From NCBI GenBank assembly GCA_045592905.1, contig JAZNVR010000024.1:1528-65527 (forward strand): a stretch of 64,000 nucleotides of DNA, given 5' to 3'. Both the position numbers and the translations under genes were made by a program. The notes beneath the pieces were generated by a model. That model was not told where the DNA came from. It saw only the letters and a program-made list of their open reading frames with translations, and did not search any database. Positions 4,232 to 47,240 of this stretch are shown in pieces (positions within the stretch are counted from its first letter, which is position 1; every line of letters begins with the position of its first letter). This DNA comes from Candidatus Enterousia sp. (GTDB lineage: Bacteria; Pseudomonadota; Alphaproteobacteria; Rs-D84).

Positions 4232-7200
4232 TTAGATATCCAACAATTGTTGTTGACCATTACCTTCACGTGCCAAGCGTTCTGCCTTTTCTTCTTCTTT
4301 GGCAATTTCACGAACACGACGAACGTATGCACCTGTTCCAATTGGAATCAAACGACCAACAATCAAGTTTTCGTTGATACCAACCAGTTTATCTGTTGAA
4401 CCACTGATTGCAGCGTCAACTAATACTTTTGTTGTCTGTTGGAACGATGCGTTTGAAATAAATGAACGTGATGTCAATGATGCACGTGTCAATCCAACCA
4501 AGACCTGAGATGCAGTCGCTTGTTTACCGTTATCACGTGCGACACGTGCGTTTTCTTCTTCAAAATCAACACGATCTACAACCTGACCCATCAAGAATCC
4601 TGTATCACCCGGATTTGTAATTTCAACACGACGTGTCATTTCACGTATTAAAATTTCAATGTGCTTGTCATTAATTACCACACCCTGCAGGCGATAAACT
4701 TGCTGGATTTGTTCAACCATAAAGGTTGCCAGGGCTTTCTGACCCAAGATACGTAAAATATCTTGTGGTACAGGATCACCATCAACCAACTTTTCAGCCT
4801 TTTTCACAACATCGCCACTGCGTACCAACAGGTTTGTACCCTTTGGAACCGCATATTCAACAGGTGCTGTGCCGTCTGTTGGTTCAATACGGATGATAAT
4901 TTTATTCTTTGCATCTTCCAGTTCAACAGTACCATCAATTTCTGCCAATAATGCAGGATTTGTTGGACGACGAACTTCCAATAATTCATTAACACGTGGC
5001 AAACCACCAGTAATGTCACCTGTACGTTTTGTTTGAACAGGAATACGTGCCAAAATATCACCGGCAACAACATGGTCACCATTGGCAACATTCAACACAG
5101 AATAGATTGGCAATAAATATTCTGCAATCTTCTTTCCGCCCAGTGAAATAACATTGCCCTTGTCATCAACCAAGGTAACTGCTGGTTTTAATGCTTTTTT
5201 GGTATTTGTCTTCCAGTTAATAACCTTGCGTGAAACGATGCCTGTCATGGAATCAACTTCTTCTTGGTATGAAACATTTTCAACCAAGTCATTAAAGTTT
5301 ACAATACCGTCTTTTTCAGCGATGATTGTATTAGAATATGGATCCCATTCTGCAACTTTTGCACCCTTTTCAACCGCATCACCATCGTTAACAATCAACA
5401 TTGATGCATATGGCAAGTTACTGCTGAACAATTCTTTACCTTCTGCATCAACAACAGCCAGTTTGCCGTTACGGCTTAATACTACAACACGACCTGCACT
5501 GTTCTTAATTGTGTTAACGCCAGACAATTTGATTGTACCGGATACAGGTACTTCAATAAAGTGACTTTCCGCACCACCAGATGCAACACCACCAATGTGG
5601 AACGTACGCAATGTCAACTGTGTACCAGGTTCACCAATTGATTGTCCTGCAACAACACCGACCGCTTCGCCAACGTGTACCAATGCATTTCTGGACAAAT
5701 CCATACCATAACATTTTGCACACAAGCCATCTGAACAACATGTCAGAACACTGCGGACATCAACAGATGGCAAACCAGATTCATTGATTTGCTTTGCCGC
5801 AGCCTTGGTAATCAATTCACCGGCAGGAACAATAATTTCTTTGGTAATTGGATGAACAATGTCATGTGCCGCAGTGCGTCCCAAAACAACATCACCCAAT
5901 GCAACAGACAATGTAGAACCCTGATATACAGGCTTCGCTGTGATAAAGTCTGCTGTACCACAATCGTGTTCTGTGATAACTGTATTTTGTGCCAATTCAA
6001 CCAAACGACGTGTCAAGTAACCAGCGTCAGCAGTCTTTAACGCTGTATCCGACATACCTTTACGTGCACCGTGGGTAGACGTAAAGTATTCAGACATGGT
6101 CAGACCTTCCTTAAAGTTTGATATAATTGGAACTTCAATAATAGATCCGTCTGGTTTCTGCATCATACCACGCATACCAGCCAACTGTTGAATCTGACGT
6201 TTAGAACCACGTGCACCAGATAATGCCATCATATATACAGAATTCCATTGGTCGCCAGTTGTCTTACCCAACGCAGCATATGCCATATCGCCCAATCTGT
6301 CTGTTGTCTTGTGCCACAAGTCAATCAATTTGTTATAGCGTTCACCACCCGATAACAAACCGTTTTGATACTGTTCTTCAATTTCAGCAGCAGCCTTTTC
6401 AGATTCTGCAATCAGATCTTTCTTTTCTTCTGGAATGACAACGTCATCATATCCAATAGAAATACCACTGCGTGCAGCCTGTTCAAAACCAGTATTCTTT
6501 AATGCGTCAGCCAACAAAATCATTTCTTTGTCGCCACAACGTTCATATGTTGTTGCCAACAATGCCTTGATTTCACCACGTGGCATAACCTTGTTTACTA
6601 AATCAAATGGCATATTGTCGCAATCTGGTAACAATTCACCCAAAATCATACGACCAGCTGTTGTTTTGTACGTTTTACCCTTGATACGTGCAATAATTGG
6701 TGTATGTAATGTAATTGTCTTGTTTTCCAACGCTAACTTTACTTCATCCATATTGGCAAAACGTGGTGATTTGTCGCTGTGTTCACCATTTATCAACGAG
6801 ATATAGTAAACACCCAATACCATGTCCTGGGTAGGAACAATCATTGGTTCACCATTTGCAGGCGACAATACGTTATTAGAAGACAACATCAATGTACGTG
6901 CTTCTAACTGTGCTTCTAATGAGATAGGAACGTGAACAGACATCTGGTCACCGTCAAAGTCAGCATTAAATCCAGCACAAACCAGCGGATGTAAACGGAT
7001 TGCCTTGCCTTCAATCAATACAGGTTCAAAAGCCAACAATGATAAACGGTGCAATGATGGTGCACGATTTAACAATACAGGATGTTCATGAATAACTTTT
7101 TCCAAGATTTCCCATACAACATCTTCACCATTTTCAACCATCTTGCGTGCTGTTTTCAATGTATTGGCGTAATCACCCGCCATCAAACGTGCAAAAACAA

Positions 7201-8341
7201 ATGGCTTAAACAATTCCAGTGCCATTGTCTTTGGCAAACCAACCTGATGCAATTTCAGTGTTGGACCAGACACAATAACAGAACGGCCAGAATAATCAAC
7301 ACGTTTACCCAACATATTCATACGGAAACGACCAGATTTACCACGCAATGAATCAGATAATGATTTCAATGGACGACGGTTCTGTGATACCATTGGACGT
7401 GCCTTGTGGCCGTTATCAAACAATGAATCAACCGCTTCTTGTAACATACGTTTTTCATTACGGATGATAATATCAGGTGCATGCATTTCCATAAAACGTT
7501 TCAAACGATTATTACGGATAATTACACGACGATATAAATCATTCAAGTCAGATGCAGCAACGTGTCCAGCATCCAACGTAACTAATGGACGCATATCTGG
7601 TGGAATTACAGGAATAATATCAGGCAACATCCACGCTGGTTCTGTCTTGGAATCCAAGAAAGATTCAACCAACTTTAATTGCTTAATAATACCTTTACGT
7701 TTTGCTTCGGATTTTGTATCAGCCAATTCTGCACGCAGACGTGTACGTTCATCGCCCATATCCAAATTTGCGATAATGCTGCGAACACCTTCGGCACCAA
7801 TACCAACATGGAATGCATCTGCCCCAAATTCTTCAACAGCAGCCTGATATTCATCTTCACTGATAACATCGTACTGTTTCAAATTTGTTAAACCTGGTTC
7901 AATTACAATATACGCATCATATGAAATAACCTGTTCCAACTTTTTCTGTGGCAAGTTATTCAATAATGTCGCAATTTTACCTTCACGTAAGAACCAAGTA
8001 TGTGCGACAGGCATTGCTAATTTAATATGCCCCATACGTTCACGACGAACTGCAGAAGAACCAACTTCTACACCGCAACGTTCACAAACAACACCACGGA
8101 ATTTAATTCTTTTATATTTTCCGCATGCACATTCATAATCTTTTACAGGTCCAAAAATCTGTTGACAGAACAGACCTTCGGCTTCTGGTTTCATGGAATG
8201 ATAATTAATAGTTTCTGGTTTTTTTACTTCACCATGGGACCATGACAGAATTTCTTCTGGAGACGCAATTGTGATGCGTAATGCATCAAACTGTTCCTTG
8301 GTTTCTATCTGTCCAAATATCTTTTGCAACATATTGCTCAT
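4232..8341 (-). CDS. rpoC: DNA-directed RNA polymerase subunit beta-prime
   Basis: 1369-aa translation with the NADFDGD catalytic motif and an N-terminal Cys cluster; AAGGAG RBS; follows rpoB. Confidence 0.98.
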   Translation of the reverse strand: MSNMLQKIFGQIETKEQFDALRITIASPEEILSWSHGEVKKPETINYHSMKPEAEGLFCQQIFGPVKDYECACGKYKRIKFRGVVCERCGVEVGSSAVRRERMGHIKLAMPVAHTWFLREGKIATLLNNLPQKKLEQVISYDAYIVIEPGLTNLKQYDVISEDEYQAAVEEFGADAFHVGIGAEGVRSIIANLDMGDERTRLRAELADTKSEAKRKGIIKQLKLVESFLDSKTEPAWMLPDIIPVIPPDMRPLVTLDAGHVAASDLNDLYRRVIIRNNRLKRFMEMHAPDIIIRNEKRMLQEAVDSLFDNGHKARPMVSQNRRPLKSLSDSLRGKSGRFRMNMLGKRVDYSGRSVIVSGPTLKLHQVGLPKTMALELFKPFVFARLMAGDYANTLKTARKMVENGEDVVWEILEKVIHEHPVLLNRAPSLHRLSLLAFEPVLIEGKAIRLHPLVCAGFNADFDGDQMSVHVPISLEAQLEARTLMLSSNNVLSPANGEPMIVPTQDMVLGVYYISLINGEHSDKSPRFANMDEVKLALENKTITLHTPIIARIKGKTYKTTAGRMILGELLPDCDNMPFDLVNKVMPRGEIKALLATTYERCGDKEMILLADALKNTGFEQAARSGISIGYDDVVIPEEKKDLIAESEKAAAEIEEQYQNGLLSGGERYNKLIDLWHKTTDRLGDMAYAALGKTTGDQWNSVYMMALSGARGSKRQIQQLAGMRGMMQKPDGSIIEVPIISNFKEGLTMSEYFTSTHGARKGMSDTALKTADAGYLTRRLVELAQNTVITEHDCGTADFITAKPVYQGSTLSVALGDVVLGRTAAHDIVHPITKEIIVPAGELITKAAAKQINESGLPSVDVRSVLTCCSDGLCAKCYGMDLSRNALVHVGEAVGVVAGQSIGEPGTQLTLRTFHIGGVASGGAESHFIEVPVSGTIKLSGVNTIKNSAGRVVVLSRNGKLAVVDAEGKELFSSNLPYASMLIVNDGDAVEKGAKVAEWDPYSNTIIAEKDGIVNFNDLVENVSYQEEVDSMTGIVSRKVINWKTNTKKALKPAVTLVDDKGNVISLGGKKIAEYLLPIYSVLNVANGDHVVAGDILARIPVQTKRTGDITGGLPRVNELLEVRRPTNPALLAEIDGTVELEDAKNKIIIRIEPTDGTAPVEYAVPKGTNLLVRSGDVVKKAEKLVDGDPVPQDILRILGQKALATFMVEQIQQVYRLQGVVINDKHIEILIREMTRRVEITNPGDTGFLMGQVVDRVDFEEENARVARDNGKQATASQVLVGLTRASLTSRSFISNASFQQTTKVLVDAAISGSTDKLVGINENLIVGRLIPIGTGAYVRRVREIAKEEEKAERLAREGNGQQQLLDI

Positions 8342-16406: not shown

Positions 16407-16436
16407 TTGCAAGACATGCGTGTTTTTGTCTACAAT
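16407..16436 (+). promoter_or_regulatory. Candidate sigma70-like promoter for the virB8-10 operon
   Basis: TTGCAA (16407-16412), 18-nt spacer, TACAAT (16431-16436), about 25 nt upstream of the GTG start. Motif match only. Confidence 0.35.
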
Positions 16437-16461
16437 CATCATAATCAAGGGGGAGAAATTC

Positions 16462-17148
16462 GTGCAAAACCGCATAGAACCGCCAATTTTGTTATCTAGA
16501 ATAATGACCTTTGTCCTGGCAACGGCCCTGGTTGTGCTGGGTGCGTTGGCAATTACTATTTATAATATGTTCCCTTTGAACCGACCACAAGTATTCTTTT
16601 TGATGTCTACCATTCGTGATAACCAAGATGTCAGACTGGTTGAAATGCAACCACAAAGTGAAAATACAGACAGATACAAACAAAACTTTGTTCGTGAATA
16701 CATCAGATACAGAAATGAAATTTTCGCAAATGCAAACGAAATGAATAAAAAATGGAACAGCGAAGATGGCATTGTCAGAATTATGTCAACAGATGACACA
16801 TATGCAAACTTTGCAAATTCAATCTTGTTTAACGAAGTAATGAGCAACAGTATTTCCAATATACCTGTACAATGTGCCGTATTTTTTGATGGGGCACCAA
16901 TGCATATGCCATCAGATTCACAGAATTTAGATACATATCAGTCAAAAATTAGATATTTATGTGCAGATAATACTGGACGTGAACTAAAAAAAGATTATAC
17001 AATAAGAATGAAAATACTAACACAGGACGGAACACAAATAAAATGGGCCGACCGAATTGAAAACCCACTTGGATTAAAAGTGGCAGAATATACGATAGTA
17101 TCTGGGGATGGGGATCCATTAAACACTGGATTCTTGGCAACAGAATAA
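16462..17148 (+). CDS. virB8: Type IV secretion VirB8-like protein
   Basis: Short N-terminus, one TM helix (MTFVLATALVVLGALAITIY), then a periplasmic domain with VirB8-type strings FVREYIRYRNEI and NPLGLKVAEY. Start set at the GTG 6 nt after a GGGGGAG RBS; ATG at 16504 is an alternative. Followed by virB9 and virB10. Confidence 0.8.
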   Translation: MQNRIEPPILLSRIMTFVLATALVVLGALAITIYNMFPLNRPQVFFLMSTIRDNQDVRLVEMQPQSENTDRYKQNFVREYIRYRNEIFANANEMNKKWNSEDGIVRIMSTDDTYANFANSILFNEVMSNSISNIPVQCAVFFDGAPMHMPSDSQNLDTYQSKIRYLCADNTGRELKKDYTIRMKILTQDGTQIKWADRIENPLGLKVAEYTIVSGDGDPLNTGFLATE

Positions 17149-17169
17149 AAAAGACAGGGAAGGATTGGT

Positions 17170-18696
17170 ATGACGTTTACAAAATCGTTCAAGTTTAATG
17201 TTTCTATTTTTTGTTTGGTCGGGCTGTTATGTCTGCCAACGTTTGGTGAAGAATATGGTATCCAAGAAGCGTGGGACAACCCAACCGCAAATATGGCCAG
17301 TGGCAGTATCAAGCCAGGGTATGCACAATTATCTTGGTCATCTGGTACAGTGTTACCAATCAAACTGCGTAACGGCATGGTTACGATGATAACGTTGCCA
17401 AACGGTGAACAAATTGCAGATGCGTTTGTTGGGAACCAAGGATTATTCTCTATTCAAGCAACCCAGGGTGACAGAACGATGTTCATATCGCCAGATGCGA
17501 CAAACCAAGGTTCTGATACAAATTTGATTGTAACTGGAAAATCAGGAAACAAATACATATTTTATTTACGTAGCGAACCATCAAATTCCAGCGAAATAAC
17601 ATATTCACAGGTTGATGTATTACTGGATGGGAATGCAAATCTGCCAATGGCAGGAACTGCAACGGCCTCATCTGGGGGTGCAAAATCTATATTCAAAAAA
17701 TCAGCCCCCACGACCAGTGTTGTTGGTGTTGATGGCGAAGATTACGGATGGATAAAATCAATGAAAATTGACCCATCTGAATTTAGATTTGATTTAGATA
17801 TCTTTGTGCCAAATCCAGACGATTATGTAATTGCACCAGAACGTGTATGGCGTGATAGAATATTTACATATATTGACTTTGGCGACAAGGTTATATCAAT
17901 GACACAACGCCCTGTTGTATCATTATTAGTAGAAGGTGGTGAATCACCTGTGGGATTCCGCACAGATGGTGAAGACGGCAGATTATTAATAGTAGAGGCT
18001 GTTGGCGACATGGTTCTGCGTAGTGGTCAACGCATTGTTTGTATAAAAAAGCGTGAAAAACCATTCTTGATTGCAGACACAGCATCAGTTATGGCATTAG
18101 CAGAAGCAAATGTTGCACAAAGCATGCTGTCTGGACAATCACTGAACAATATTGCGTATACAGACAGTATGGCCGCAATGAGTATGGGTACAAACTATAC
18201 AGGAACACCAATGTATGTTGGTAATACAGGAACAGTAAACCCAGCCACTGGTGCAGGATATTATATGCCCGCAGGATTTACCGTACCCCAGGTAATGCCA
18301 TCATCTGGCAGTGTTGTTAACATGTTACCACAGGAACGGAATACAGCCGGGGCATATTTACCACAAACAAATATTCCACTAATTGCCAGCAATCAAACAG
18401 GTGTTGCAATTGAATTGAAATCAGACACTTCTGTCAAGGCACTTGAAAATCACTGGACGACATTGTTGGCAAAATTTAGCGGTGAAGACGGCCAGGGATT
18501 ATTAACACCATATAAAGACATGGTATTCTTTGCCGTTGACGAACAAGGCGTTGGTGATTTAGGGGCAGCATCTTCTGCAGCACGTCAATATCGTCTGCGT
18601 ATTGGGCCATTTGCAAACATTGAAACAGCACAAAGCCTGTGTGATAAATTGCTGAAAGTCAGCGGAACCAGTTGCAGTGTTGTTCGTATGCAATAA
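17170..18696 (+). CDS. virB9: VirB9/CagX/TrbG-like protein with a C-terminal SPOR domain
   Basis: Signal peptide (..LLCLPTFG/EE). N-terminal VirB9 domain (NLIVTGKSGNKYIFYLRS) and C-terminal VirB9 domain (RIFTYIDFGDK..RPVVSLLVEGGESPVGFRTDG..LIVEAVGDMVLRSGQRIVCIKK). Then a roughly 110-aa S/T/G/M/N-rich linker and a SPOR-like end (VAIELKSD..YRLRIGPFANIETAQSLCDKLLKVSGTSCSVV). Confidence 0.85.
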   Translation: MTFTKSFKFNVSIFCLVGLLCLPTFGEEYGIQEAWDNPTANMASGSIKPGYAQLSWSSGTVLPIKLRNGMVTMITLPNGEQIADAFVGNQGLFSIQATQGDRTMFISPDATNQGSDTNLIVTGKSGNKYIFYLRSEPSNSSEITYSQVDVLLDGNANLPMAGTATASSGGAKSIFKKSAPTTSVVGVDGEDYGWIKSMKIDPSEFRFDLDIFVPNPDDYVIAPERVWRDRIFTYIDFGDKVISMTQRPVVSLLVEGGESPVGFRTDGEDGRLLIVEAVGDMVLRSGQRIVCIKKREKPFLIADTASVMALAEANVAQSMLSGQSLNNIAYTDSMAAMSMGTNYTGTPMYVGNTGTVNPATGAGYYMPAGFTVPQVMPSSGSVVNMLPQERNTAGAYLPQTNIPLIASNQTGVAIELKSDTSVKALENHWTTLLAKFSGEDGQGLLTPYKDMVFFAVDEQGVGDLGAASSAARQYRLRIGPFANIETAQSLCDKLLKVSGTSCSVVRMQ

Positions 18697-18725
18697 ATGA
18701 TTGTACTTATAGTGTGGGTAATAAA

Positions 18726-21200
18726 ATGAAAAATCTGAAACAGCAGTTCGCAGAGTTAAAAGAAAATACACCAAAACATATTCAATGGTTGTTGTTGGTG
18801 GCTGCGTTTATTGTGGTGGTAATTCTGCTGACGTTGCTGTTCGGTGAAAAGAAACAAACTGATTTATCAAACACAAATAAAACGGTACCTGTGCTAAATA
18901 TAGAACCAGATATTGTAAATTGGTCTGATGTTACAGTAGGACAAAAGAAAACCCAACCAATTAAAATTACTGCGTCTGCACCGGTAAAAATAAAAGATGT
19001 AAGATTACATAAAGAAATTGCTGGTTTTCATATCACAGATACATGCAAGGCAATCCGACAGATTAACGACAAAGTTGCATGTGTAATAACTGCAATATAC
19101 GAACCAACCAAGGCCGCAAATACGGAACAATTACCAATATTTATTGATTGGTATGACGCAGCGGAATCAGAAACAATGACACATTCTGACAAGATAGTTT
19201 TATCGTTGGGTGCTGTTGCACCGGTTGTTGAAAAACAATCAGAACCAATTGTTGAACAGAAATCTGAACCTGTGGTTGAAGATAAAAAAGAACCAGTTGT
19301 TGAACAGAAATCTGAACCTGTGGTTGAAATACCAGACACAACAGAAAACTTAAAAGAACCAGAAGAAACAAAAGAAAAAGATATTGAACAATCAGAACCA
19401 ATACCTGTGAAGCAAGAAATTAAAAAGGATATAGAATCTATTGCACCAGCAATCAATTTTGACGAGGATTCTTATACCCCACCACCAGAAACATGTTCTG
19501 ACTTTGCGTTTCCAGGATATGATAATTCTGGTCGTCAAATCGGCTGGATTAAACCCGAAGGCGGAACATATAAATTCCATCCATTTTCTGATACAGAATG
19601 CAATAATCCAACTGGTATATATAACCCAAACAATGGGATTATTACAGATATAAACAGCAAAGGAAAAAGAATCGGTACAGACGCAGAACATATTGGACGT
19701 GCAATAACAATTGACGGGAAATTACCAGAACTGTCAAATGCACCAGCAATAAAATCTGTTAATCGTGCAAGACAATTATCCAACGACGAACTGGATTTAG
19801 GTGCCGCCATTCAAATAGGCACAGGTGCAGGCCACTTGACCAGTGAAGGGATAAAACCATTCAGCAATACTATCAACCCTGCCCCAAAACAAGATGTTTC
19901 TTATGAATCTACGGGGCAAGATACCGTTGTGTCATCAGAAATACGTGACAGACAATTCTTGTTGCGTCAATATAAACCGATTCCTGCAACAATTGTGTCT
20001 GATGTTCGTGCAGACCCAGAAGCATTGGCAAACAGCCATCTGCCTGTACGTGCAACCGTAGACAGAAATGTGTATTCTGATAACGGTCGCAACGTTATAA
20101 TTCCAACTGGTACATTAATGTTGGGATACGTTACTGGAAAATTACCTGGACCATATACATCTATTGGCAGAATGGATATAAAATGGTACCAATTTATATT
20201 GCCAAATGGTGTTGAATTTAATTTTGGTGAAAACGCACCGTTTTCTGGCGATGCCCAAGGACGCTCTGGCATCCCAGGATATGGAAGTACGGATTATTTG
20301 GAACAATTCTTTATGCCAATGTTGACTGCAATTGTCCCAGCAACTGTTAATTTGATTGCACCTATTAGTGATGCGTTCGTTAATCAAATTGATTTAGATA
20401 ATAACACTGTTGTACAAAGTGGCACAATGCGTTCATCAGAAATGGCAAAAAATGAAATTATATCGGCATGGAACAGTGTTGCACAAAAATTATTGGTTGA
20501 TATGATGGATAATACAGTTCCCCCATTTACCATTGCAGCTGGCACACGTATCACAGTATATTCACCTGTTGATTTAATGGTTACATGTGGTGCCCCAGCA
20601 GATCATCCTGGTAAAAAATGTGCAGTGCACGCATATGGTTCACAGACACGTAACACAAGGTATAGTGATGCCGAGCCAAACTATAATGACGGTTCATGGG
20701 TTGGACAATCAAGATCATTTAATATTGGTCAGTTTTGTGTTACAAAAGATGGGAAACAAACGGCAGATTCAAAATGTAAGAAGCCTTCTGAGTGTGATGG
20801 GTATGATTACAGAACTGTATTAATGTACTGTGAATCATTAAACTATAAAACAAAAACAGAAGTTCAAATGGATGCATATAAACAAAGTTCACAGGAAAAA
20901 TACCAAGAAACATATGGTGGCGGGTACGACAGCAAAACAGGTAAATTCCAAGGTAATTCAACACAACAGGCGGCATATGATGAAATGGTTGGAATTACAT
21001 ATGACGAAGATGGGTTTGTTGAAAATCCATTTGGGTCCCCAGAACCTGCTGCACCAGAAGAACCAGTTATGACATGTCTTGATGGTTCTTTACCAGATGC
21101 AAACGGTTGCTGTGCTGGTGAAATTTATACAGATATGGGCGAAGCAGGATTTAACTGTTGTCCAGAAACAGGTGGCGACTGTTTCCCACCAATAAAATAA
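18726..21200 (+). CDS. virB10: VirB10/TrbI-like protein with extra N-terminal and Cys-rich C-terminal regions (824 aa)
   Basis: TM helix (WLLLVAAFIVVVILLTLLF) and an acidic/Pro repeat linker. TrbI/VirB10 domain: IPATIVSDV..VYSDNGRNVIIPTGTLMLGY..IKWYQFILPNGVEF..DAQGRSGIPGY..PPFTIAAGTRITVYSPVDL. About 205 extra C-terminal residues carry 12 Cys. ATG at 18726 preferred over the TTG at 18672. Confidence 0.85.
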   Translation: MKNLKQQFAELKENTPKHIQWLLLVAAFIVVVILLTLLFGEKKQTDLSNTNKTVPVLNIEPDIVNWSDVTVGQKKTQPIKITASAPVKIKDVRLHKEIAGFHITDTCKAIRQINDKVACVITAIYEPTKAANTEQLPIFIDWYDAAESETMTHSDKIVLSLGAVAPVVEKQSEPIVEQKSEPVVEDKKEPVVEQKSEPVVEIPDTTENLKEPEETKEKDIEQSEPIPVKQEIKKDIESIAPAINFDEDSYTPPPETCSDFAFPGYDNSGRQIGWIKPEGGTYKFHPFSDTECNNPTGIYNPNNGIITDINSKGKRIGTDAEHIGRAITIDGKLPELSNAPAIKSVNRARQLSNDELDLGAAIQIGTGAGHLTSEGIKPFSNTINPAPKQDVSYESTGQDTVVSSEIRDRQFLLRQYKPIPATIVSDVRADPEALANSHLPVRATVDRNVYSDNGRNVIIPTGTLMLGYVTGKLPGPYTSIGRMDIKWYQFILPNGVEFNFGENAPFSGDAQGRSGIPGYGSTDYLEQFFMPMLTAIVPATVNLIAPISDAFVNQIDLDNNTVVQSGTMRSSEMAKNEIISAWNSVAQKLLVDMMDNTVPPFTIAAGTRITVYSPVDLMVTCGAPADHPGKKCAVHAYGSQTRNTRYSDAEPNYNDGSWVGQSRSFNIGQFCVTKDGKQTADSKCKKPSECDGYDYRTVLMYCESLNYKTKTEVQMDAYKQSSQEKYQETYGGGYDSKTGKFQGNSTQQAAYDEMVGITYDEDGFVENPFGSPEPAAPEEPVMTCLDGSLPDANGCCAGEIYTDMGEAGFNCCPETGGDCFPPIK
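19251..19328 (+). repeat. In-frame tandem repeat inside virB10 (30-nt exact copies, 48-nt period)
   Basis: GTTGAACAGAAATCTGAACCTGTGGTTGAA at 19251-19280 and 19299-19328. It encodes reiterated (E/K)x(K)(S/K)EP(I/V)VE octapeptides. Confidence 0.85.
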
Positions 21201-21226
21201 TCAAATACACTTGATTAATAATTATC

Positions 21227-21252
21227 AGTACGCATTCATGCGTACTTTTTTT
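21227..21252 (+). terminator. Intrinsic terminator after virB10
   Basis: AGTACGCAT..ATGCGTACT stem followed by T7. Confidence 0.8.
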
Positions 21253-21428: not shown

Positions 21429-21773
21429 ATGACATCAACATTCGCAATAAATGTATCGGTTGAAAAATTCCAATCTGCAGAACAACTGTGGTTTTGGTTT
21501 TTATATTCCAAATCTGTACGTAATGGTTTTTCAAGAATACATTCTAATCCAACAAAACGACCCTGCGAAATACTGGATGTTGAAACAATGATTACTAAAT
21601 TATATTTATCAGGTAAATTAAATGACGAGCAATTACAAACAATGAAAAAATTTGGCGATAAACGTCGTGCACCACATCAGTATATATGGAATGAAAATCG
21701 TGCGGCTGCACAATGGAAATCTGCAATGGATGTTATAGAACATACTGCACAAAAATTAGGATGGATTGAATAA
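21429..21773 (+). CDS. Hypothetical protein (114 aa)
   Basis: Strong RBS AAAAGGAGAAAG 6-8 nt before the ATG; balanced composition; no motif I can name. Confidence 0.6.
   Translation: MTSTFAINVSVEKFQSAEQLWFWFLYSKSVRNGFSRIHSNPTKRPCEILDVETMITKLYLSGKLNDEQLQTMKKFGDKRRAPHQYIWNENRAAAQWKSAMDVIEHTAQKLGWIE

Positions 21774-22197: not shown

Positions 22198-22200
<3 letters not shown>
22172..22200. terminator. Bidirectional intrinsic terminator (117-aa ORF / ligA)
   Basis: A6-ATCCCA-ATTAA-TGGGAT-T7. Confidence 0.75.
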
Positions 22201-24256
<2,056 letters not shown>

Positions 24257-24258
24257 TA

Positions 24259-25638
24259 TTATTCCAATGTTCGTAGACTTATTTTATCTTCATCTACGAT
24301 GACAAGTTTTCCAGAATTTATATTAAATCTGCGGGCAGCATTAAATCCATCACGCATACCAAACAACTGGTTATCATAAATTGGAAACACACCACGCAAT
24401 AAACATAACTGGTTTGCAATCACAGATTCATTACATACCGCAATCACAGGAATATCAGGTTTGCGACAAGAAATTTCTGTTGCAGCAACAGTATCACGTG
24501 CAAAAACAATAATTGCAGATGCCTTGTTCAAATATGCCATTGATGCCACAGAACGAGACCAATCATTTTCTGGAATATTTTCAACACGTGACCAATCATA
24601 TGGATTTGCAATCGCATCAGCATCAGCATGGATTAAAATATTTGCCATTGTTTCAATCGCATTTACTGGATTAATACCAATCGTTGTTTCTTCAGATGTC
24701 ATTGTTGAATCAGCACGCAAGTATGCAGCGTTTGCAACGTCTGTAATTTCTGCACGTGTTGGAAATTCACTGCTTACCATAGAGCCCAACATCTGTGTTG
24801 CAACAATAACTGGTTTATTCATTTTTCTGCACTCACGAATTATATGACGTGATATTGCAGGCACTTCGGCATATGGGACTTCAACCGCTAAATCACCACG
24901 TGCAATCATTATTCCATCAGATGCAGATGCAATATCAGCAATACGTTCAACCGCATTTGGACGTTCTATTTTTGCAATAATCTTGATTGGATGCGATGAA
25001 TGCTGGGAAATAAAATCACGTACTTCGGCAACATCTTCGGGGCGTTGGACAAATGATATCGCAACATAATCCGGTTTTTTTGTAACAGCATATGCCAAAT
25101 CTGCCCTATCTTTTGCAGTTAATACAGATGTTGATATGTCTGTATCAGGCAAATTAAATCCACGTCTGGACCAAATTTCAGTACCACGCACAACAGTTGT
25201 TTCCACACGATTTTCCCCAACACTGTCAACAACCATTTCAATCTTGCCATCATTTAACAAAATTCTGTCACCAACATTTAATGATAGTAATACATCTGTA
25301 TCAGGCAGTTGAACACGTGTTGAATCACCAGGTGTTTCATCTGAATCAAACACAAACTTTTGTCCAATAGTTAGTGGATATTTGTGTTCTGTCTTGAAAT
25401 TACCAATACGATGTTTTGGCCCCTGCAGGTCAATCATTATCGCAACAGGGATATTTAATTCATTTGATATTTCACGAATCAAATCAATTTTATTACCCTG
25501 AACATCACCGGTATCATGGCTAAAATTCAATCTGCACATATTGACACCAGCACGAATCATTTGCGTAAGTGTTTCCCTGTCTTCGCAATTTGGACCGATT
25601 GATGCAGTAATTTTCGTATATTTATTCATATTTTCCAT
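24259..25638 (-). CDS. pyk: Pyruvate kinase
   Basis: TKITASIGPNC..CRLNFSH N-terminus and a PK-like translation throughout. The true start may be the ATG at 25629 (MNKYTKI..), which has better RBS spacing. Confidence 0.93.
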   Translation of the reverse strand: MENMNKYTKITASIGPNCEDRETLTQMIRAGVNMCRLNFSHDTGDVQGNKIDLIREISNELNIPVAIMIDLQGPKHRIGNFKTEHKYPLTIGQKFVFDSDETPGDSTRVQLPDTDVLLSLNVGDRILLNDGKIEMVVDSVGENRVETTVVRGTEIWSRRGFNLPDTDISTSVLTAKDRADLAYAVTKKPDYVAISFVQRPEDVAEVRDFISQHSSHPIKIIAKIERPNAVERIADIASASDGIMIARGDLAVEVPYAEVPAISRHIIRECRKMNKPVIVATQMLGSMVSSEFPTRAEITDVANAAYLRADSTMTSEETTIGINPVNAIETMANILIHADADAIANPYDWSRVENIPENDWSRSVASMAYLNKASAIIVFARDTVAATEISCRKPDIPVIAVCNESVIANQLCLLRGVFPIYDNQLFGMRDGFNAARRFNINSGKLVIVDEDKISLRTLE

Positions 25639-25719
25639 TCCTGTCTGTTTTTGTTTTTCTTGATTTTTGTCTTTTATGGTATATCATAAAGTCATCAAAT
25701 AAACAAGGGGAAAACAGAA

Positions 25720-25968
25720 ATGAAACAAGCAAATCATGGTGCAATTGACAATCAACAATTAATCAGCATTATTGAACGTATTGAAAAATTAAATGAAGAC
25801 ACTGCTGCAATTGCCGCAGATATCAAAGAAATTTATAGCGAAGCAAAATCAGCCGGGTTTGACCCAAAATATATTCGCCAAATGATCCGTTTGCGTAAAC
25901 TGGACCCAGACGAACTGGACGAAGCAGATGAATTAACACAAATGTATCGTAATGCACTGGGGTTATAA
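25720..25968 (+). CDS. gapR: GapR/DUF2312 (UPF0335) nucleoid-associated protein
   Basis: 82 aa with IERIEKLNED..DIKEIYSEAKSAGFDPKYIRQMIRLRKLDP, the pattern of the alphaproteobacterial GapR family; AAGGGG RBS. Confidence 0.85.
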   Translation: MKQANHGAIDNQQLISIIERIEKLNEDTAAIAADIKEIYSEAKSAGFDPKYIRQMIRLRKLDPDELDEADELTQMYRNALGL

Positions 25969-26282
25969 TGAAAGGTTTTACAAAAACCATTGAAGATTTT
26001 AACTGTGCCCATTGTGGCACAGTTGTTCATGGTAATGGATATACCAATCATTGTCCAAAATGCTTGTGGTCAAAACATGTTGATAATAATCCAGGCGATC
26101 GCAGTGCGACATGTGGTGGAATGATGGAACCTGTAACAGCAGAACCAAATGGTGAACGTTTTATCATCACGCACAAATGTCAAATATGTGGAAAAACAAA
26201 ACGACAGAAAACCGCTGACAATGATGATATAGATAAAATTATTGAATTATCCAACAATAAATCTTTTATTTTTGGAAAATGA
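25968..26282 (+). CDS. RNHCP domain protein
   Basis: FNCAHCG..GYTNHCPKCLWSKHVD..ATCGG..CQICG. TAATG overlap with the gapR stop. Confidence 0.75.
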   Translation: MKGFTKTIEDFNCAHCGTVVHGNGYTNHCPKCLWSKHVDNNPGDRSATCGGMMEPVTAEPNGERFIITHKCQICGKTKRQKTADNDDIDKIIELSNNKSFIFGK

Positions 26283-26310
26283 AAATACGCCCCATTTGGG
26301 GCGTTTTTAT
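26283..26310 (+). terminator. Intrinsic terminator after the RNHCP gene
   Basis: ACGCCCCA-TT-TGGGGCGT followed by T5; overlaps the pyrG stop. Confidence 0.7.
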
Positions 26311-27878
26311 TTCCTGTCCTTGGCAGCACCAACAAACGCATTAAACATTGGGTGTCCATGATACGGACTGGATTGAAATTCTGGATGAAATTGCCCAGCA
26401 ATAAAAAATGGATGATTTTTCAATTCTATCATTTCAGGCAAACGACCATCTGGACTGCGACCAGATATTATCATACCCGCATCTGCAAATTTCTGTTCTA
26501 ATGATATATCCATTTCGTACCTATGACGATGACGTTCGCTGATTTGTGTCGTACCATAAATTTTATACGCCAACGTATCTGGCGTAATTTCACATGGATA
26601 CGCCCCCAGACGCAATGTCCCACCATAATTTTCAGAATCGCAATCGGCAATTATACCAATAACAGGTGTACAATCTTTCTTGAATTCTGTTGAATTAGCA
26701 TCTGTTATTCCCAAAACATTGCGTGCAAAATCAATTACAGCAACCTGCATTCCTAAACATATGCCCATATACGGAATCTTGTTTTCACGTGCATATGTTG
26801 CAGCAGCAATTTTTCCATCAACACCACGTTCACCAAAACCACCTGGGACCAAAATACCATCAACATCAACACATTTATCTGGGCTAAAATCTTCGGCATT
26901 TATCTTTTTAATTTTTACATGCACATTATTTTGAACGCCTGCATGGAACAATGCTTCGTTCAATGATTTATATGCATCTGGAACATCAAAATATTTACCA
27001 ACAACACCAATATTTACAGTTGGAATATCTGCAGACAAATATTTTTCAATCCTTTCAAATCGTGTCATATCACCACGTGCATGTGGCAAACCAAAATGAT
27101 CTGCGATGATATCAAAAACATGTTGTGCTTCATACGCCATTGGTATTTTATAGATATTATCAACATCAATACCACTAATTACGCTTTTAGCAGGTAAATT
27201 GCAGAACATTCCAATTTTATCACGTTCTGATGGTGTTAACATGCGTGGTGTACGAACAATTAACATATCTGCCTGGATTCCATTTTCCAATAAATTACGC
27301 ACAGACATTTGTGTTGGTTTTGTTTTTAACTCGCCAGATTTTTCTAAATATGGTGCCAATGTTAAATGAACAAACATAACATTTCTGCGACCAACATCAT
27401 TTGCAAATTGACGAATTGATTCCAAGAAAATTTTACCTTCTATATCACCAACTGTTCCGCCAATTTCACATACGACAAAATCTGTATCAACAGGGGCAGA
27501 AATATATTCTTTTATCTTGTTTGATACGTGTGGAATCATTTGCACAGTTCCACCCAAATATTCCCCACGTCGTTCTGCATTTAATACATCCCAATAAATA
27601 CGACCACCAGAAACAGAATCGTTTCTTGATAATTTTGCACCCAAGAATCGTTCATAATATCCCAGGTCTAAATCCGTTTCATGACCATCATTTGTTACGT
27701 ACACTTCGCCATGTTGAATAGGCGACATAGTACCAGGATCAATATTTAAGTACGGATCAAATTTACGTGCATGAACAGTGTACCCCCTGGATTGAAGAAG
27801 GGCGCCACACCCTGCCGCTGCGACGCCCTTACCTAAACTGGAAACTACACCACCTGTTATAAAAATATATTTTGCCAT
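26307..27878 (-). CDS. pyrG: CTP synthase
   Basis: MAKYIFITGGVVSSLGKG N-terminus and a glutaminase domain with GICLGMQ. Confidence 0.97.
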   Translation of the reverse strand: MAKYIFITGGVVSSLGKGVAAAGCGALLQSRGYTVHARKFDPYLNIDPGTMSPIQHGEVYVTNDGHETDLDLGYYERFLGAKLSRNDSVSGGRIYWDVLNAERRGEYLGGTVQMIPHVSNKIKEYISAPVDTDFVVCEIGGTVGDIEGKIFLESIRQFANDVGRRNVMFVHLTLAPYLEKSGELKTKPTQMSVRNLLENGIQADMLIVRTPRMLTPSERDKIGMFCNLPAKSVISGIDVDNIYKIPMAYEAQHVFDIIADHFGLPHARGDMTRFERIEKYLSADIPTVNIGVVGKYFDVPDAYKSLNEALFHAGVQNNVHVKIKKINAEDFSPDKCVDVDGILVPGGFGERGVDGKIAAATYARENKIPYMGICLGMQVAVIDFARNVLGITDANSTEFKKDCTPVIGIIADCDSENYGGTLRLGAYPCEITPDTLAYKIYGTTQISERHRHRYEMDISLEQKFADAGMIISGRSPDGRLPEMIELKNHPFFIAGQFHPEFQSSPYHGHPMFNAFVGAAKDRK

Positions 27879-27956
27879 AAGAATACCCCCTTATGTGTAT
27901 CTATCGTACGAAAAATTTTATTGCAGTGCAATTAAATAAATTTCTATACTAAAATT

Positions 27957-29888
27957 ATGAAAGATTGGATAAAAAATCAATTACAAAATTCCTTTTTATA
28001 TATACCATTTTTAATGGCATTTGGGGCGGGTATTTATTTCTGCAGTACAACAGAAATAAAAATACTGTACAGCATATGTTTATTTATTATTTCCTGTATT
28101 GGAATTGGCTATAATAAAACACCTGTATTATTGCGTGGTATTTGTTTTTTAGTTTTTGGTTTTTGCTATGCATCATTATTTACACATACCATAAATACGC
28201 CACGTATACCACACCACACAAACGCAAATGAACTGATTGGTATTGTTACAAATATTGATTTTTCAAATGACAAAAACAAGATTTTATTGACTGTTAATGG
28301 TCAAGACATAAATACAGTTGATAAGCCTGTTATAATTCGTCTGTCTGTAAATCCGGATATTTCATTACCAGACATTGGTGATACGATACAATTTAATGGT
28401 ACTGTTTATAAACCATCCGTTGCCAATGCGCCTGGAACATTTGACTTTGCACGTTGGACATATTTCAACCATATTACTGCAACAGGATATGCAGACAAAA
28501 TAACTGTAATTAACACTTCGGACACAAAAACCATTAACACGTTGCGTAATTTTTTACATAATAAATCTGAATCTTTTCTGACTGATACGTTGGTACTGGG
28601 GTATAAATCCGCAATACCAGAACAAGACCAGGAAATTTGGAAATCTACTGGGGTTGGACACATTTGGTCAATCAGCGGATTTCATATTACATTGGTTGGC
28701 GGTTGGATATTTGCGATTATATATTTAATATTCCGCAGTATTCCGTACATAACGAAACGTATACCCGCCAGGATTCCTGCAATAATAATTACTTGGTTTG
28801 GTTTACTGTTTTATTTATTTTTATCTGGTTCTGATGTTGCAACCATACGTGCATTTATCATGACCAGCTTGGCATTTATAGCGTTTATTTTCGGACGAAG
28901 TGTTATTTCTGTTCGTAATGTTGCATTGGCATTTTGTCTGATATTCTTAATAAACCCACACTATGTAATGCAGGCAGGGTTTCAACTATCATTTTCTGCT
29001 GTATTTGGACTGGTGTGGCTGTATACAGATGTTAAACCAAAGATGCCTAAAAATAAATTTATCAAGATAATCTATGCAATGCTTTTAACTACGTTTGTTG
29101 CGACAATATTCACAGCACCTTTTATTGCTGCACATTTTGGACAAATTCCAACGTACAGTTTATTAGGAAACATGATTTTCTTGCCGATATTCTCATTTGC
29201 AATTATGCCATTGATTATGATTGGTACAGTATGTGCCATCTTTAATATTATGTTTCCGATTCATTTTGCACACAGCATATATGATTTTGCGTATTCTATC
29301 GCAATATGGATTTCTGAATTACCAATGGCAAACATATATACGCCATATATATCAAATACCAACTTAACATTGTTTATCATCGGATTTATTTTTCTGATTC
29401 TTGTCAAGAACAACAAGATAAAGTTAAATTATATTTTATTTATAATGTTTATCTGTATGGGAATTATTGGAATATATATTGAACACAAGCCTGTATTTTA
29501 TTCAACGTATGACACTGAATTAGTTGGATTTGTTAAACCAGATGGACATCTGGAATTTAATAAAGCACGTTCATCAAAACACTATTTTGCATTTAATACA
29601 TGGAAACAAATTAATGGCGAACCAACCGACACAAAAAACATTCGTGCAAAACATACCCATGGCGTTTACAGATATAATACAGAAAAATTTAATTTGGTAT
29701 ATATACTAAAATTTACATCACTAATGAATAATATTTCGCAATTATGCAACGATGACAATGTTGATTTCATTGTTTCGTATCATGACATAAAATCAAAACA
29801 CTGTGGACACAAGATTTTACAAGGTGGCTTTGTAATATATCCAAATGGGGATATTACATATATACCCCGCAAACGTAAATGGAATTAA
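27957..29888 (+). CDS. comEC: ComEC/Rec2-family competence channel protein (no obvious metallo-beta-lactamase module)
   Basis: Polytopic membrane protein with ComEC-like N-terminal and competence-domain architecture. I did not see an HxHxDH motif in the roughly 150-aa C-terminal tail. Confidence 0.8.
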   Translation: MKDWIKNQLQNSFLYIPFLMAFGAGIYFCSTTEIKILYSICLFIISCIGIGYNKTPVLLRGICFLVFGFCYASLFTHTINTPRIPHHTNANELIGIVTNIDFSNDKNKILLTVNGQDINTVDKPVIIRLSVNPDISLPDIGDTIQFNGTVYKPSVANAPGTFDFARWTYFNHITATGYADKITVINTSDTKTINTLRNFLHNKSESFLTDTLVLGYKSAIPEQDQEIWKSTGVGHIWSISGFHITLVGGWIFAIIYLIFRSIPYITKRIPARIPAIIITWFGLLFYLFLSGSDVATIRAFIMTSLAFIAFIFGRSVISVRNVALAFCLIFLINPHYVMQAGFQLSFSAVFGLVWLYTDVKPKMPKNKFIKIIYAMLLTTFVATIFTAPFIAAHFGQIPTYSLLGNMIFLPIFSFAIMPLIMIGTVCAIFNIMFPIHFAHSIYDFAYSIAIWISELPMANIYTPYISNTNLTLFIIGFIFLILVKNNKIKLNYILFIMFICMGIIGIYIEHKPVFYSTYDTELVGFVKPDGHLEFNKARSSKHYFAFNTWKQINGEPTDTKNIRAKHTHGVYRYNTEKFNLVYILKFTSLMNNISQLCNDDNVDFIVSYHDIKSKHCGHKILQGGFVIYPNGDITYIPRKRKWN

Positions 29889-30616
29889 TAATCTGCACGA
29901 ATAAAATATAACCCAGATGCCGGTGCTGTTGGGCCAGCCATACTGCGATTTTTTGCATTTAAAATTTCATCAATATCATATGGTTTCCCCAGTCCAATTT
30001 CAATCAATGTTCCAACAATATTACGCACCATGTGATGCAAGAATGAACGTGCAGAAAATTCAAAAATTATTTCATCACCGCTTTGCGTAATTTTAATTTT
30101 ATCCAGTGTTTTTATTGGGGATTTTGCCTGACATTCCGACGCACGAAAACTGGTAAAATCATGATTGCCGATTAATTTCTGTGCTGCCACTTGCATTGCA
30201 TCAATATTTAATTTTCGTGGCACCCAATAAACACGATTTTTGTTTAATACAGGTGATGCACTGCGATTCAATACAACATACATGTAATGACGTGCCACAC
30301 AATCAAATCGTGCATTAAATGCATCCGATACAATTTCACAATCCAGAACAGATACAGGTTTATTATTTAGATAGAAATTCAATGCACGCATAACTGTATT
30401 TGCATCAAATTCACCATCAATATCAAAATGTGCAGTCATGGCAATAGCATGCACACCTGCATCTGTACGCCCTGCCCCAACGACATCGGGCCGCATACCA
30501 CAAAAACCATAAATTGCGTCTTTCATAATTGATTGCACAGATGGCCCCTGGCGGTTTTCCTGCCAGCCAATTAAATCTGTACCATCATATTCCAAGATTA
30601 CTTTATATCGTGTCAT
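29885..30616 (-). CDS. truA: tRNA pseudouridine synthase A
   Basis: GAGRTDAGVHA catalytic motif; 243 aa. Confidence 0.93.
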   Translation of the reverse strand: MTRYKVILEYDGTDLIGWQENRQGPSVQSIMKDAIYGFCGMRPDVVGAGRTDAGVHAIAMTAHFDIDGEFDANTVMRALNFYLNNKPVSVLDCEIVSDAFNARFDCVARHYMYVVLNRSASPVLNKNRVYWVPRKLNIDAMQVAAQKLIGNHDFTSFRASECQAKSPIKTLDKIKITQSGDEIIFEFSARSFLHHMVRNIVGTLIEIGLGKPYDIDEILNAKNRSMAGPTAPASGLYFIRADY

Positions 30617-30765
30617 TATCTTGTTTTGTGCTTAAAGCGATTACACCAACCATTTGCAGGCACCAGCATTGGCCCAACAATTTTTACAATTACACGTGGC
30701 CCATAATAGCAACCACCATCATCATAACGTTTACAATCTTCACATTTTTCTGAAATACAGCACAT
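30616..30765 (-). CDS. Small Cys-rich protein (49 aa), paralog of the adjacent 87-aa ORF
   Basis: Not in the ORF track. Reads MCCISEKCEDCKRYDDGGCYYGPRVIVKIVGPMLVPANGWCNRFKHKTR. AAGGGA RBS. Its stop overlaps the truA ATG (TAATG). Shares KCExC, DG.C and WCxxF motifs with its neighbour. Confidence 0.55.
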   Translation of the reverse strand: MCCISEKCEDCKRYDDGGCYYGPRVIVKIVGPMLVPANGWCNRFKHKTR

Positions 30766-30776
30766 AATTGTTTCCC

Positions 30777-31040
30777 TTATTTTAATCTTTGTGTCAAACC
30801 CTTAATTTTTTGGACCAGCAACTGCATACGTGTCATTTCTGGTTTTGTATTTTTTTGTTTGCTGAATGCATCAAAATGGTCGCACCAATCATCTGGTTTT
30901 ACATGACGCTTACCCAAAATAACACGCAAAATCCAACATGGATATTCACATACCAAGCCATCTGAACTGTTTTTATCGCCAGAATGTTGACAGTTTATAC
31001 AATTTTCACATTTTGATACCACATCAATTATAGACGACAT
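30777..31040 (-). CDS. Small Cys-rich protein (87 aa)
   Basis: KCENCINC..DGLVCEYPC..DDWCDHFD followed by a basic helical tail. Starts 2 nt after the fmt stop. Confidence 0.6.
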   Translation of the reverse strand: MSSIIDVVSKCENCINCQHSGDKNSSDGLVCEYPCWILRVILGKRHVKPDDWCDHFDAFSKQKNTKPEMTRMQLLVQKIKGLTQRLK

Positions 31041-31042
31041 AT

Positions 31043-31849
31043 CTATACCCCTATTTTTACTGGTTCACCACGAAGGCCATTTACAAAACTTTTCCAATCC
31101 ATCGGCTTTTTACCGGCCGGCTGTAATTGCAAAATTTCAAGTTTATCGCCATCTAAAACCGTAGATAAAATCTTGACATCAATGCCATTTATTTTTGTGC
31201 GACCCGCCCCCAACGCACGAACCTGATTATGAACTGCAACCGCACCGCGTGTCCAGTCAATTATTTCATCTGCACCTGTCCATTTTTTCGTGAATGTTGG
31301 CGTACCATTTTGCGGCACTGCACTGTATACATCAGGATTCATCAAGAAAGACAACAGCATATCAATCGCAATTTGTGATACACGTGTTTCAACACTGTCG
31401 TTTGTATCATTAATATCAATATCAAATTCACAACACTGATAAATATCACCGGCATCCATTTCTGATGTCATTTGCATCAAACATACGCCAGACTTTTTAT
31501 CGCCATTGTAAATCGCACTGCGAATTGGAGATGGGCCACGATATTGCGGCAACAAACTGGGGTGAATATTTACGCATGGTGCAGAATTTAATACATTATC
31601 ACGTAATATTACACCATACGAAATAACAACAACCATATCAGGTGAATAATTATATTCATTGATGTTCGTATGCAGCGTCAACCCATGTTCAACCGCCCAG
31701 TTATGCACAGGCGATGGCGTCAGTATCTGTTTACGGCCAACAGGTTTTGGTGCACGTGTAAACACCGCCATAATTTCATGACCAGACCGTCTGATTGCTT
31801 CAAAGATTGGCACAACAAATGCGTTTGTGCCCATTAAGACCAATTTCAT
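31043..31849 (-). CDS. fmt: Methionyl-tRNA formyltransferase (short, 268 aa)
   Basis: HPSLLPQYRG motif; canonical position after def. Confidence 0.9.
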   Translation of the reverse strand: MKLVLMGTNAFVVPIFEAIRRSGHEIMAVFTRAPKPVGRKQILTPSPVHNWAVEHGLTLHTNINEYNYSPDMVVVISYGVILRDNVLNSAPCVNIHPSLLPQYRGPSPIRSAIYNGDKKSGVCLMQMTSEMDAGDIYQCCEFDIDINDTNDSVETRVSQIAIDMLLSFLMNPDVYSAVPQNGTPTFTKKWTGADEIIDWTRGAVAVHNQVRALGAGRTKINGIDVKILSTVLDGDKLEILQLQPAGKKPMDWKSFVNGLRGEPVKIGV

Positions 31850-31850
31850 G

Positions 31851-32351: not shown

Positions 32352-32393
32352 TTATAAAACCTCTTATAATTAATCATAGCAAAGGATTATCAA

Positions 32394-33272: not shown

Positions 33273-33325
33273 CATTGATACAAAAAAACAATATAATTCC
33301 CCTTGTAAAATATTCGTGGAGGAAA

Positions 33326-47166: not shown

Positions 47167-47240
47167 TGGGGTGTCGTCTAATGGTAGGACAAGAGATTTT
47201 GGTTCTCTTTATCATGGTTCGAATCCGTGCGCCCCAACCA
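47167..47240 (+). tRNA. tRNA-Gln (anticodon UUG), CCA end encoded
   Basis: TGGGGTG TC GTCT AATGGTA GGAC A AGAGA TTTTGGT TCTCT TTAT CATGG TTCGAAT CCGTG CGCCCCA A CCA. Anticodon at 47199-47201. Confidence 0.93.

Follow-up and report, generated by a model that had tools for sequence, protein, structure and literature searches.

The stretch of DNA analysed here, hereafter called the window, comprises 64,000 nt of Candidatus Enterousia sp. (assembly GCA_045592905.1, contig JAZNVR010000024.1, positions 1,528-65,527, forward strand), and all coordinates given below are those of the window unless a different locus is named. At 16462-21200 on the forward strand it carries an operon of three co-directional genes, virB8, virB9 and virB10, which encode homologues of core proteins of type IV secretion systems (T4SSs). 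Enterousia belongs to the order Rs-D84 of the Alphaproteobacteria, an uncultured gut lineage with genomes <1 Mb (PMC12306168), and its genome size was taken as roughly 0.85 Mb. All three gene products exceed the curated Pfam cut-offs, and the open reading frame (ORF) coordinates give the intergenic gaps of 21 and 29 nt that the initial annotation had reported. The features of the operon are as follows:

16407-16436, forward strand: promoter-like hexamers TTGCAA and TACAAT separated by 18 nt, 9 of 12 consensus matches; a pattern only
16462-17148, forward strand: virB8-like gene, 228 aa, GTG start 5 nt after the ribosome-binding site GGGGGAG (16450-16456)
17170-18696, forward strand: virB9/CagX-like gene, 508 aa, with signal peptide, CagX domain, linker and SPOR domain
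18726-21200, forward strand: virB10/TrbI-like gene, 824 aa, assigned by Pfam TrbI, an AlphaFold2 model and Foldseek
19220-19328, forward strand: tandem repeat of 24 nt x 4.5 (Tandem Repeats Finder), encoding the EPVVEQKS repeats of the Pro/Glu-rich, periplasm-spanning VirB10 linker
21075-21182, forward strand: C-terminal six-cysteine module of VirB10, aa 784-819, C-x10-CC-x14-CC-x7-C, '..DANGCCAGEIYTDMGEAGFNCCPETGGDC', followed by FPPIK
21227-21252, forward strand: intrinsic terminator with an 8-bp G+C-rich stem (21227-21246), a 4-nt loop and a T7 tail

The upstream neighbours of the operon, tRNA-Trp and secE, are divergent, and the 230-nt gap between tRNA-Trp and virB8 contains no ORF. Because these neighbours are divergent, the promoter of the operon must sit within this gap. 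The start of the operon had been placed at 16407, which is the first base of the promoter-like hexamer, with the ATG at 16407-16409 being out of frame with virB8. The promoter-like element itself did not hold up either, since a scan with shuffled sequence as control gave 25 such sites against 26 expected, and a match of 9 of 12 does not exceed chance level. The clean terminator described after virB10 was confirmed as a structure, with a folding free energy (dG) of -16.7 kcal/mol, a z of -5.25, and 0 of 200 shuffles folding equally well. The G+C content of the operon equals that of its surroundings.

The assignment of the three proteins to VirB8, VirB9/CagX and VirB10/TrbI, as proposed in the initial annotation, is supported by profile hidden Markov model searches, with Pfam scores above the cut-offs, and by structure matches. 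VirB8, as read from its sequence, has a short cytoplasmic N-terminus, one transmembrane helix at about aa 15-35 and a periplasmic VirB8 domain, and it matches Pfam PF04335 with an E of 2.9e-8 (34.2 bits against a cut-off of 23.2), while its family profile of 29 members matches the solved structures of TrwG, TraE and Brucella VirB8, with a best E of 7e-8. In 77 of 79 related loci a virB8 gene precedes virB9. VirB9 consists of a signal peptide, a CagX domain at aa 53-294 (Pfam E 1.6e-21, 77.5 bits against 34.2), a low-complexity linker at about aa 300-400 and a SPOR region at about aa 410-508 (nt about 18397-18693), within which Pfam SPOR (PF05036), a peptidoglycan-binding domain type, matches aa 470-506 with an E of 2.4e-5 (25.0 bits against 21). 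VirB9 therefore carries the C-terminal SPOR domain by which SPOR proteins are recognized. Across Enterousia the VirB9 identity is 74-89%, and the SPOR region (~95 aa) aligns and is conserved in all lineages, namely Enterousia, the outgroups and a sister lineage with giant VirB10 proteins (alignment A4), with the Pfam SPOR call being weak in the VirB9 of loci L084 and L089. A second SPOR protein of the window is the D-Ala-D-Ala carboxypeptidase (Peptidase_S11) encoded at 39320-40471, which is also SPOR-terminated.

VirB10 matches Pfam TrbI with an E of 3e-17 (63.5 bits against a cut-off of 35). Its AlphaFold2 model was built on 34 homologues and compared with the Protein Data Bank by Foldseek, the mean predicted local distance difference test score (pLDDT) being 55, with 75-85 in the domains. 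A short conserved cytoplasmic tail is followed by a transmembrane helix at aa 20-43, an ASH/PapD-like Ig domain at aa 55-165 (nt 18888-19220), for which Foldseek returned the ASH domains of HYDIN and CEP192, the Pro/Glu-rich linker, whose length differs between homologues (alignment A1), and a small conserved Cys-containing beta domain at aa about 255-330 (nt 19488-19715). The TrbI barrel (aa 418-613, nt 19977-20564) contains, according to the AlphaFold2 model, a pair of long antenna helices at aa 523-594, and the protein ends in a C-terminal extension of 200 aa which carries the six-cysteine module. The model matches ComB10 as the top structure, as well as CagY, TrwE, TraF and Xanthomonas VirB10, and the single sequence likewise has its best solved-structure match in ComB10 (E 1.9e-5), while the family profile places CagY first, above ComB10. 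No NCBIfam equivalog cut-off was reached, which places VirB9 and VirB10 within their superfamilies and outside all named orthologous groups: VirB9 scored 54.7 bits against 217.7 for TIGR02781, and VirB10 scored 59.8 against 220 for VirB10, 49.5 against 300 for ComB10 (NF038092) and 31.2 against 386 for IncP TrbI.

The six-cysteine module is nearly invariant among the 34 VirB10 homologues, with the motif ..NGCCxGExYTDMGxxGFNCCPxxGGDCFPPI, and VirB10 is its sole carrier in the window. In related genomes, small secreted proteins contain the module too, each with 2-3 tandem copies. The genes for these proteins lie in a conserved operon adjoining ftsQ/ftsA, as observed in L088 (1318-6336) and L150 (4439-9942), which encodes a 107-aa protein, a lipoprotein of 449-451 aa with a weak, sub-threshold STN/secretin-N match, a MacB/FtsX-type permease, an ABC ATPase, a protein of 190-311 aa and the secreted Cys-module protein. 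These proteins were considered as a marker of a second T4SS locus and rejected as such, the operon being of the MacB-type ABC exporter kind and containing no T4SS genes. Judging from the shared module, it is possible that the VirB10 tail docks small Cys-module proteins. A further secreted protein rich in cysteines (218 aa, >20 Cys) is encoded at 33269-33925, has no family match and shows a motif unrelated to the VirB10 module. Two database sequences, P0170 and P0182, have unrelated N-terminal regions joined to Enterousia-type VirB10 segments (aa 690-823 and aa 584-708, respectively), and they are artefacts of chimeric assembly or else true recombinant genes.

Among 1.84 billion representatives searched, 895 relatives were detected. 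The nearest relatives of VirB10 are >120 full-length proteins from uncultured gut Alphaproteobacteria, with 50-80% identity. When one genome per species was scanned, 292 matching stretches were obtained, with many of the best 80 titled Candidatus Enterousia. The gene order in about 80 species loci, wherever the contig extends far enough, is rpoB ... nusG secE on the reverse strand, then virB8 virB9 virB10 and two small genes, o114 and o117, on the forward strand, then yidC lspA on the reverse strand. A total of 82 virB10 ORFs are intact and full-length, ranging from 780 aa to 846 aa. Compared with a relative, the identities at codon positions 1, 2 and 3 are 0.90, 0.96 and 0.58 for virB9 and 0.81, 0.86 and 0.55 for virB10, and this indicates clear purifying selection on both genes. 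The operon was not found on any IMG/VR viral contig, and the identity of plasmid VirB10s to that of the window does not exceed 29%, findings which together argue that the operon is no mobile-element fragment. A mobile-element origin was rejected on these grounds and on the fixed site beside secE. We therefore regard the operon as functional and as a part of the chromosome that is inherited vertically, and as neither a remnant nor a piece of a mobile element.

More distant lineages show the same ASH-middle-TrbI architecture of VirB10 at 28-38% identity, with a stand-alone virB8-virB9-virB10 unit among housekeeping genes, such as between mutS and thrS (L085) or between atp genes and lptD/lptF/infB (L095), and the stand-alone three-gene unit was observed in every lineage examined with a mid-size VirB10 (L083-L087, L093-L096). 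In L085 a gene for a 57-aa VirB7-like lipoprotein stands in front of virB8. A common secreted protein of about 120 aa follows virB10 in L084, L085 and L087, with L095 having a 120-aa ORF that is alike by its position alone. The locus L084 (GCA_031283185.1) also encodes, at 4305-7519, a pair of Cys-rich repeat proteins (811 aa and 261 aa) that are secreted, show recurrent 'xCC' dyads and have no Pfam match. Their genes are co-directional with virB8 and immediately upstream of it, with a mutual overlap of 7 nt. The 811-aa protein was considered as a divergent VirB4 and rejected, being a Cys-rich secreted repeat protein.

A sister gut lineage that is abundant in metagenome-assembled genomes (L089, L090, L091) has the order virB8-virB7-virB8-virB9(SPOR)-virB10(ASH)-virB11, followed by housekeeping genes. 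Its locus resembles that of Enterousia in the conserved SPOR region of VirB9, which is 35-42% identical to the window VirB9, in the N-terminal ASH/Ig domain of VirB10, in the housekeeping surroundings and in that no VirB4 or VirD4 was found nearby, nor were P-loop motifs found in the unannotated large ORFs near the operon. It differs in its giant VirB10 of 2.1-2.3 thousand aa, its duplicated virB8, its VirB7-like lipoprotein of 58-59 aa and the virB11 directly after virB10, whereas Enterousia has none of these features and carries the Cys-module tail on VirB10 instead. The presence of SPOR and ASH domains in a lineage that keeps virB11 indicates that both domains predate Enterousia and raises the odds of a true T4SS. 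The additions which the initial annotation had called non-canonical are not idiosyncratic, the SPOR domain of VirB9 and the ASH/Ig domain of VirB10 being common to the sister lineage. A database search with the sister-lineage VirB11 gave 120 matches, all of them at least 70% identical and hence from the sister lineage, so they have no bearing on Enterousia; the distant VirB11 matches were all traced to the same sister-lineage locus type.

Among the known systems, the T4SSs of the VirB/D4 type (like mating-pair formation type T, MPF-T) are matched by the homologues of VirB8, VirB9 and VirB10. The locus shares with the VirB7-VirB9-VirB10 core of VirB, Trw and pKM101 the folds of VirB9 and VirB10, the anchoring in the inner membrane at the N-terminus and the antenna helices, but Enterousia has no VirB7 gene, and its VirB9 and VirB10 reach about double the usual length through extra domains. 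The rvh system of the Rickettsiales comprises a virB8-virB9-virB10-virB11-virD4 block with duplicated virB8, virB9, virB4 and virB6, and scattered chromosomal T4SS loci are established for this order. The rvh system and the Enterousia operon are both chromosomal and vertically inherited in host-dependent Alphaproteobacteria with reduced genomes, without mobile-element context, and rvh is spread over multiple loci. Enterousia differs, in gene arrangement, which is the basis of the comparison with rvh rather than sequence, by the lack of the attached virB11 and virD4 and of any local duplication of virB8, virB9, virB4 or virB6, while the sister lineage does have a duplicated virB8 as well as virB11. 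The Helicobacter Cag system also has enlarged VirB9 and VirB10 homologues (CagX and CagY), with CagY topping the family profile, but the Cag island encodes the full apparatus together, and the extra region of CagY consists of repeats, with no relation to the ASH and Cys modules.

We consider, with a probability of about one half, that the three genes provide the core scaffold, spanning the envelope, of a T4SS-type machine of Candidatus Enterousia that is chromosomal, inherited vertically and scattered. This reading builds on the family assignments, the topology and domain architecture of the proteins, their conservation, the fixed chromosomal position and the sister lineage with its attached virB11. 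VirB10 would be held in the inner membrane by the helix at its N-terminus and would cross the periplasm through the ASH/Ig domain and the Pro/Glu-rich linker, and together with the C-terminal domain of VirB9 it would form an outer-membrane ring whose pore might be lined by the two antenna helices of VirB10. The SPOR domain of VirB9, on its flexible linker of ~100 residues, would tether the ring to the peptidoglycan, could plausibly substitute for the absent VirB7 lipoprotein and may bias the machine towards septal or polar sites. VirB8 would bridge the core to an inner-membrane complex energised by VirB4, and the genes for VirB4, VirB3, VirB6, a pilin and perhaps VirB11 or VirD4 most likely lie elsewhere in the genome. 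As to the direction and nature of transport, we infer that the machine may serve contact-dependent exchange with a partner cell on which the metabolically deficient Enterousia depends.

Several observations weigh against this reading. All ORFs of at least 150 aa in the window were either Pfam-scanned or assigned via synteny to annotated relatives, and tblastn was run with VirB2, VirB3-B4, VirB5, VirB6, VirB11 and VirD4 from an Acinetobacter plasmid and with the sister-lineage VirB11 over about 150 loci, consisting of 81 Enterousia loci together with metagenome-set Enterousia and outgroups with mid-size VirB10, which reach within 10 kb of the operon. The window and the flanking loci together amount to about 10% of one Enterousia genome. 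Genes for VirB4, VirB11, VirD4, VirB6 and VirB2 were found neither in the 64-kb window nor, in the approximately 150 loci with this tenth of the genome sampled, at up to 10 kb from the operon, and VirB3 was likewise absent from the window and the flanking loci. Over the window and all loci searched, the giant-VirB10 lineage included, the only tblastn matches were to VirB10, plus VirB11 solely in that lineage, and since the VirB11 references detect each other at an E of 1e-17, ATPases of such divergence are detectable. In all Enterousia loci, as in the window, a terminator and unrelated genes come after virB10, in contrast to the rvh and classical VirB loci, where it is followed by virB11 and virD4. 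The statement of the initial annotation that no ATPase, pilin or coupling-protein gene stands beside the operon consequently holds for the locus, for the whole window and for the related loci, and the absence of a VirB7-like gene, which it had also noted, was confirmed in that no lipoprotein ORF fits at the window locus. VirB4 is required by all known T4SSs, and in this clade its presence is presumed. The metabolic study of the lineage is silent on T4SSs, though it speculates about cell-cell connections (PMC12306168).

The initial annotation had offered three explanations, namely one part of a scattered T4SS, an uptake machine like ComB or a scaffold put to a new use. This is still the right list, and all three are live candidates. 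A ComB-like DNA-uptake conduit, in which the VirB9/VirB10 ring would serve as an outer-membrane DNA port and ComEC/ComF would carry the DNA, mainly as a nucleotide source, across the inner membrane, appears rather unlikely. It would need a VirB4 (ComB4) homologue elsewhere and no VirB11 or VirD4, and no Enterousia locus has virB11 or virD4 after virB10, as in ComB of H. pylori, a machine of VirB2-VirB4 and VirB6-10 without VirD4 and VirB11 (PMC12857230). Rs-D84/Enterousia lacks biosynthetic pathways and standard transporters, nucleotide biosynthesis included, and is predicted to be partner-dependent, while type IV pili are named solely for the Verrucomicrobiota lineage UBA9783 and not for Rs-D84 (PMC12306168), so under such a reading another outer-membrane DNA port would be needed. 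The retention of comEC (27957-29888) and comF (57890-58612), pointed out in the initial annotation, is consistent with DNA uptake; these genes are indeed in the window, but they lie 6.7 kb and 36.7 kb from the operon in unrelated transcription units and are not co-transcribed with it. The resemblance to ComB is real in that ComB10 is the top structure match, with regard to both the single sequence and the model, but it is weak, as the ComB10 equivalog score is far below its cut-off and even below that of the generic VirB10 model, and the family profile favours CagY. Furthermore, homologues of comB6 and comB7 are not present ahead of virB8, the SPOR, ASH and Cys-module additions of the Enterousia proteins have no counterpart in ComB9 and ComB10, and the sister lineage retains virB11, which is absent from ComB. 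A weakly secretin-like lipoprotein of related genomes (the sub-threshold match in the ftsQ/ftsA-adjacent operon) could be an alternative port. Enterousia also belongs to a different phylum, ComB systems being known to us only from Campylobacterota.

It is similarly doubtful that all other T4SS genes were lost from Enterousia and the other lineages with a mid-size VirB10 and that VirB8, VirB9 and VirB10 persist as a passive, ATPase-less trans-envelope structure. Such a structure could be a tether from the outer membrane through the peptidoglycan to the inner membrane, it could act as a pore or as an anchor at the surface, or it could be a platform that displays or docks Cys-rich surface proteins, and it could attach to a partner cell and draw DNA or metabolites from it. 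The stand-alone unit in housekeeping surroundings in all the mid-size-VirB10 lineages would fit such a scaffold, as would the peptidoglycan-binding SPOR domain of VirB9, the invariant Cys module that VirB10 shares with secreted proteins of a separate MacB-type exporter operon, the large Cys-rich secreted proteins encoded co-directionally just upstream of virB8 in L084, and a published genome analysis in which no T4SS is mentioned (PMC12306168). VirB8 and the conserved short cytoplasmic tail of VirB10, however, normally contact inner-membrane partners, the sister lineage retains virB11, and the absence of other T4SS genes refers to about 10% of the genome. We also know of no T4SS-derived core that works without VirB4. 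If this scaffold were real, it would be the first known case of a T4SS core complex functioning independently of a T4SS. That the operon is a decaying remnant or a mobile-element fragment of a conjugative T4SS without present function is hardly credible: the lack of neighbouring T4SS genes is the sole point in its favour, and it is contradicted by the conservation data, that is by the 82 intact virB10 ORFs with relatives among the 292 matching stretches of species-representative genomes, the purifying selection, the fixed site beside secE with matching G+C content, and the lack of viral-contig matches, with only distant matches on plasmids.

Beyond the terminator, and about 300 nt from virB10, the two small genes mentioned above are adjacent to the operon and are candidates only as members of the system:

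21429-21773, forward strand: o114, a conserved, cytoplasmic-looking protein of 114 aa
21834-22187, forward strand: o117, a conserved protein of 117 aa with conserved His and Cys positions

These genes had been regarded as ORFans, a description that has to be withdrawn, as they are conserved clade-wide in >70 related species. In the 82 sequences examined (81 loci and the window), tblastn matches to o114 were obtained in 76, with 60-82% identity and always downstream of virB10, and to o117 in 72, with 37-65% identity. Neither has a Pfam or NCBIfam match, and homologues were not found beside the outgroup operons, so that their linkage to virB10 may reflect only the synteny of small genomes. The o117 protein has an invariant His close to its N-terminus and a Cys near residue 90, and by eye it recalls permuted enzymes of the NlpC/P60/LRAT type. 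While yidC-lspA follows directly after o117 in most Enterousia genomes (L001-L081), the window has a block of ~11.7 kb between o117 and yidC (22198-33925; ligA, pyk, pyrG, comEC, truA, fmt, def, rmuC and others), which is, as judged by gene order, a local rearrangement relative to most relatives.

Elsewhere in the window, a stretch of low G+C content (49502-53765; 29-32% against about 38%) is located downstream of tRNA-Gln (47167-47240) and includes tRNA-Glu (52919-52993). The stretch holds five ORFs, four of which were Pfam-scanned without a match, with 53205-53765 being outside the scan, and their products are coiled-coil or Lys/Asn-rich, one having a signal-anchor and one (51823-52860) an HExxH motif, HEMNH. 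The region resembles a variable island whose secreted or effector-like proteins evolve fast. A secreted protein of 426 aa is encoded at 58606-59886, between comF and murG, with a weak, sub-threshold OmpA-like match at its C-terminus, and it may be another peptidoglycan-binding envelope protein.

We could not find a description of a stand-alone VirB8-VirB9(SPOR)-VirB10(ASH and Cys module) subfamily in the searchable literature, nor, in searchable full text, of a T4SS in Enterousia, Rs-D84 or RF32. Enterousia is widespread in the guts of humans, ruminants, horses and birds, and the route by which it acquires metabolites is an open puzzle (PMC12306168). The T4SS core operon, conserved throughout these genomes and under strong constraint, offers a concrete candidate for the apparatus, as yet missing, by which Enterousia connects to other cells or takes up material, and for T4SS biology it makes one ask whether VirB4 is indispensable to the existence of a T4SS core.

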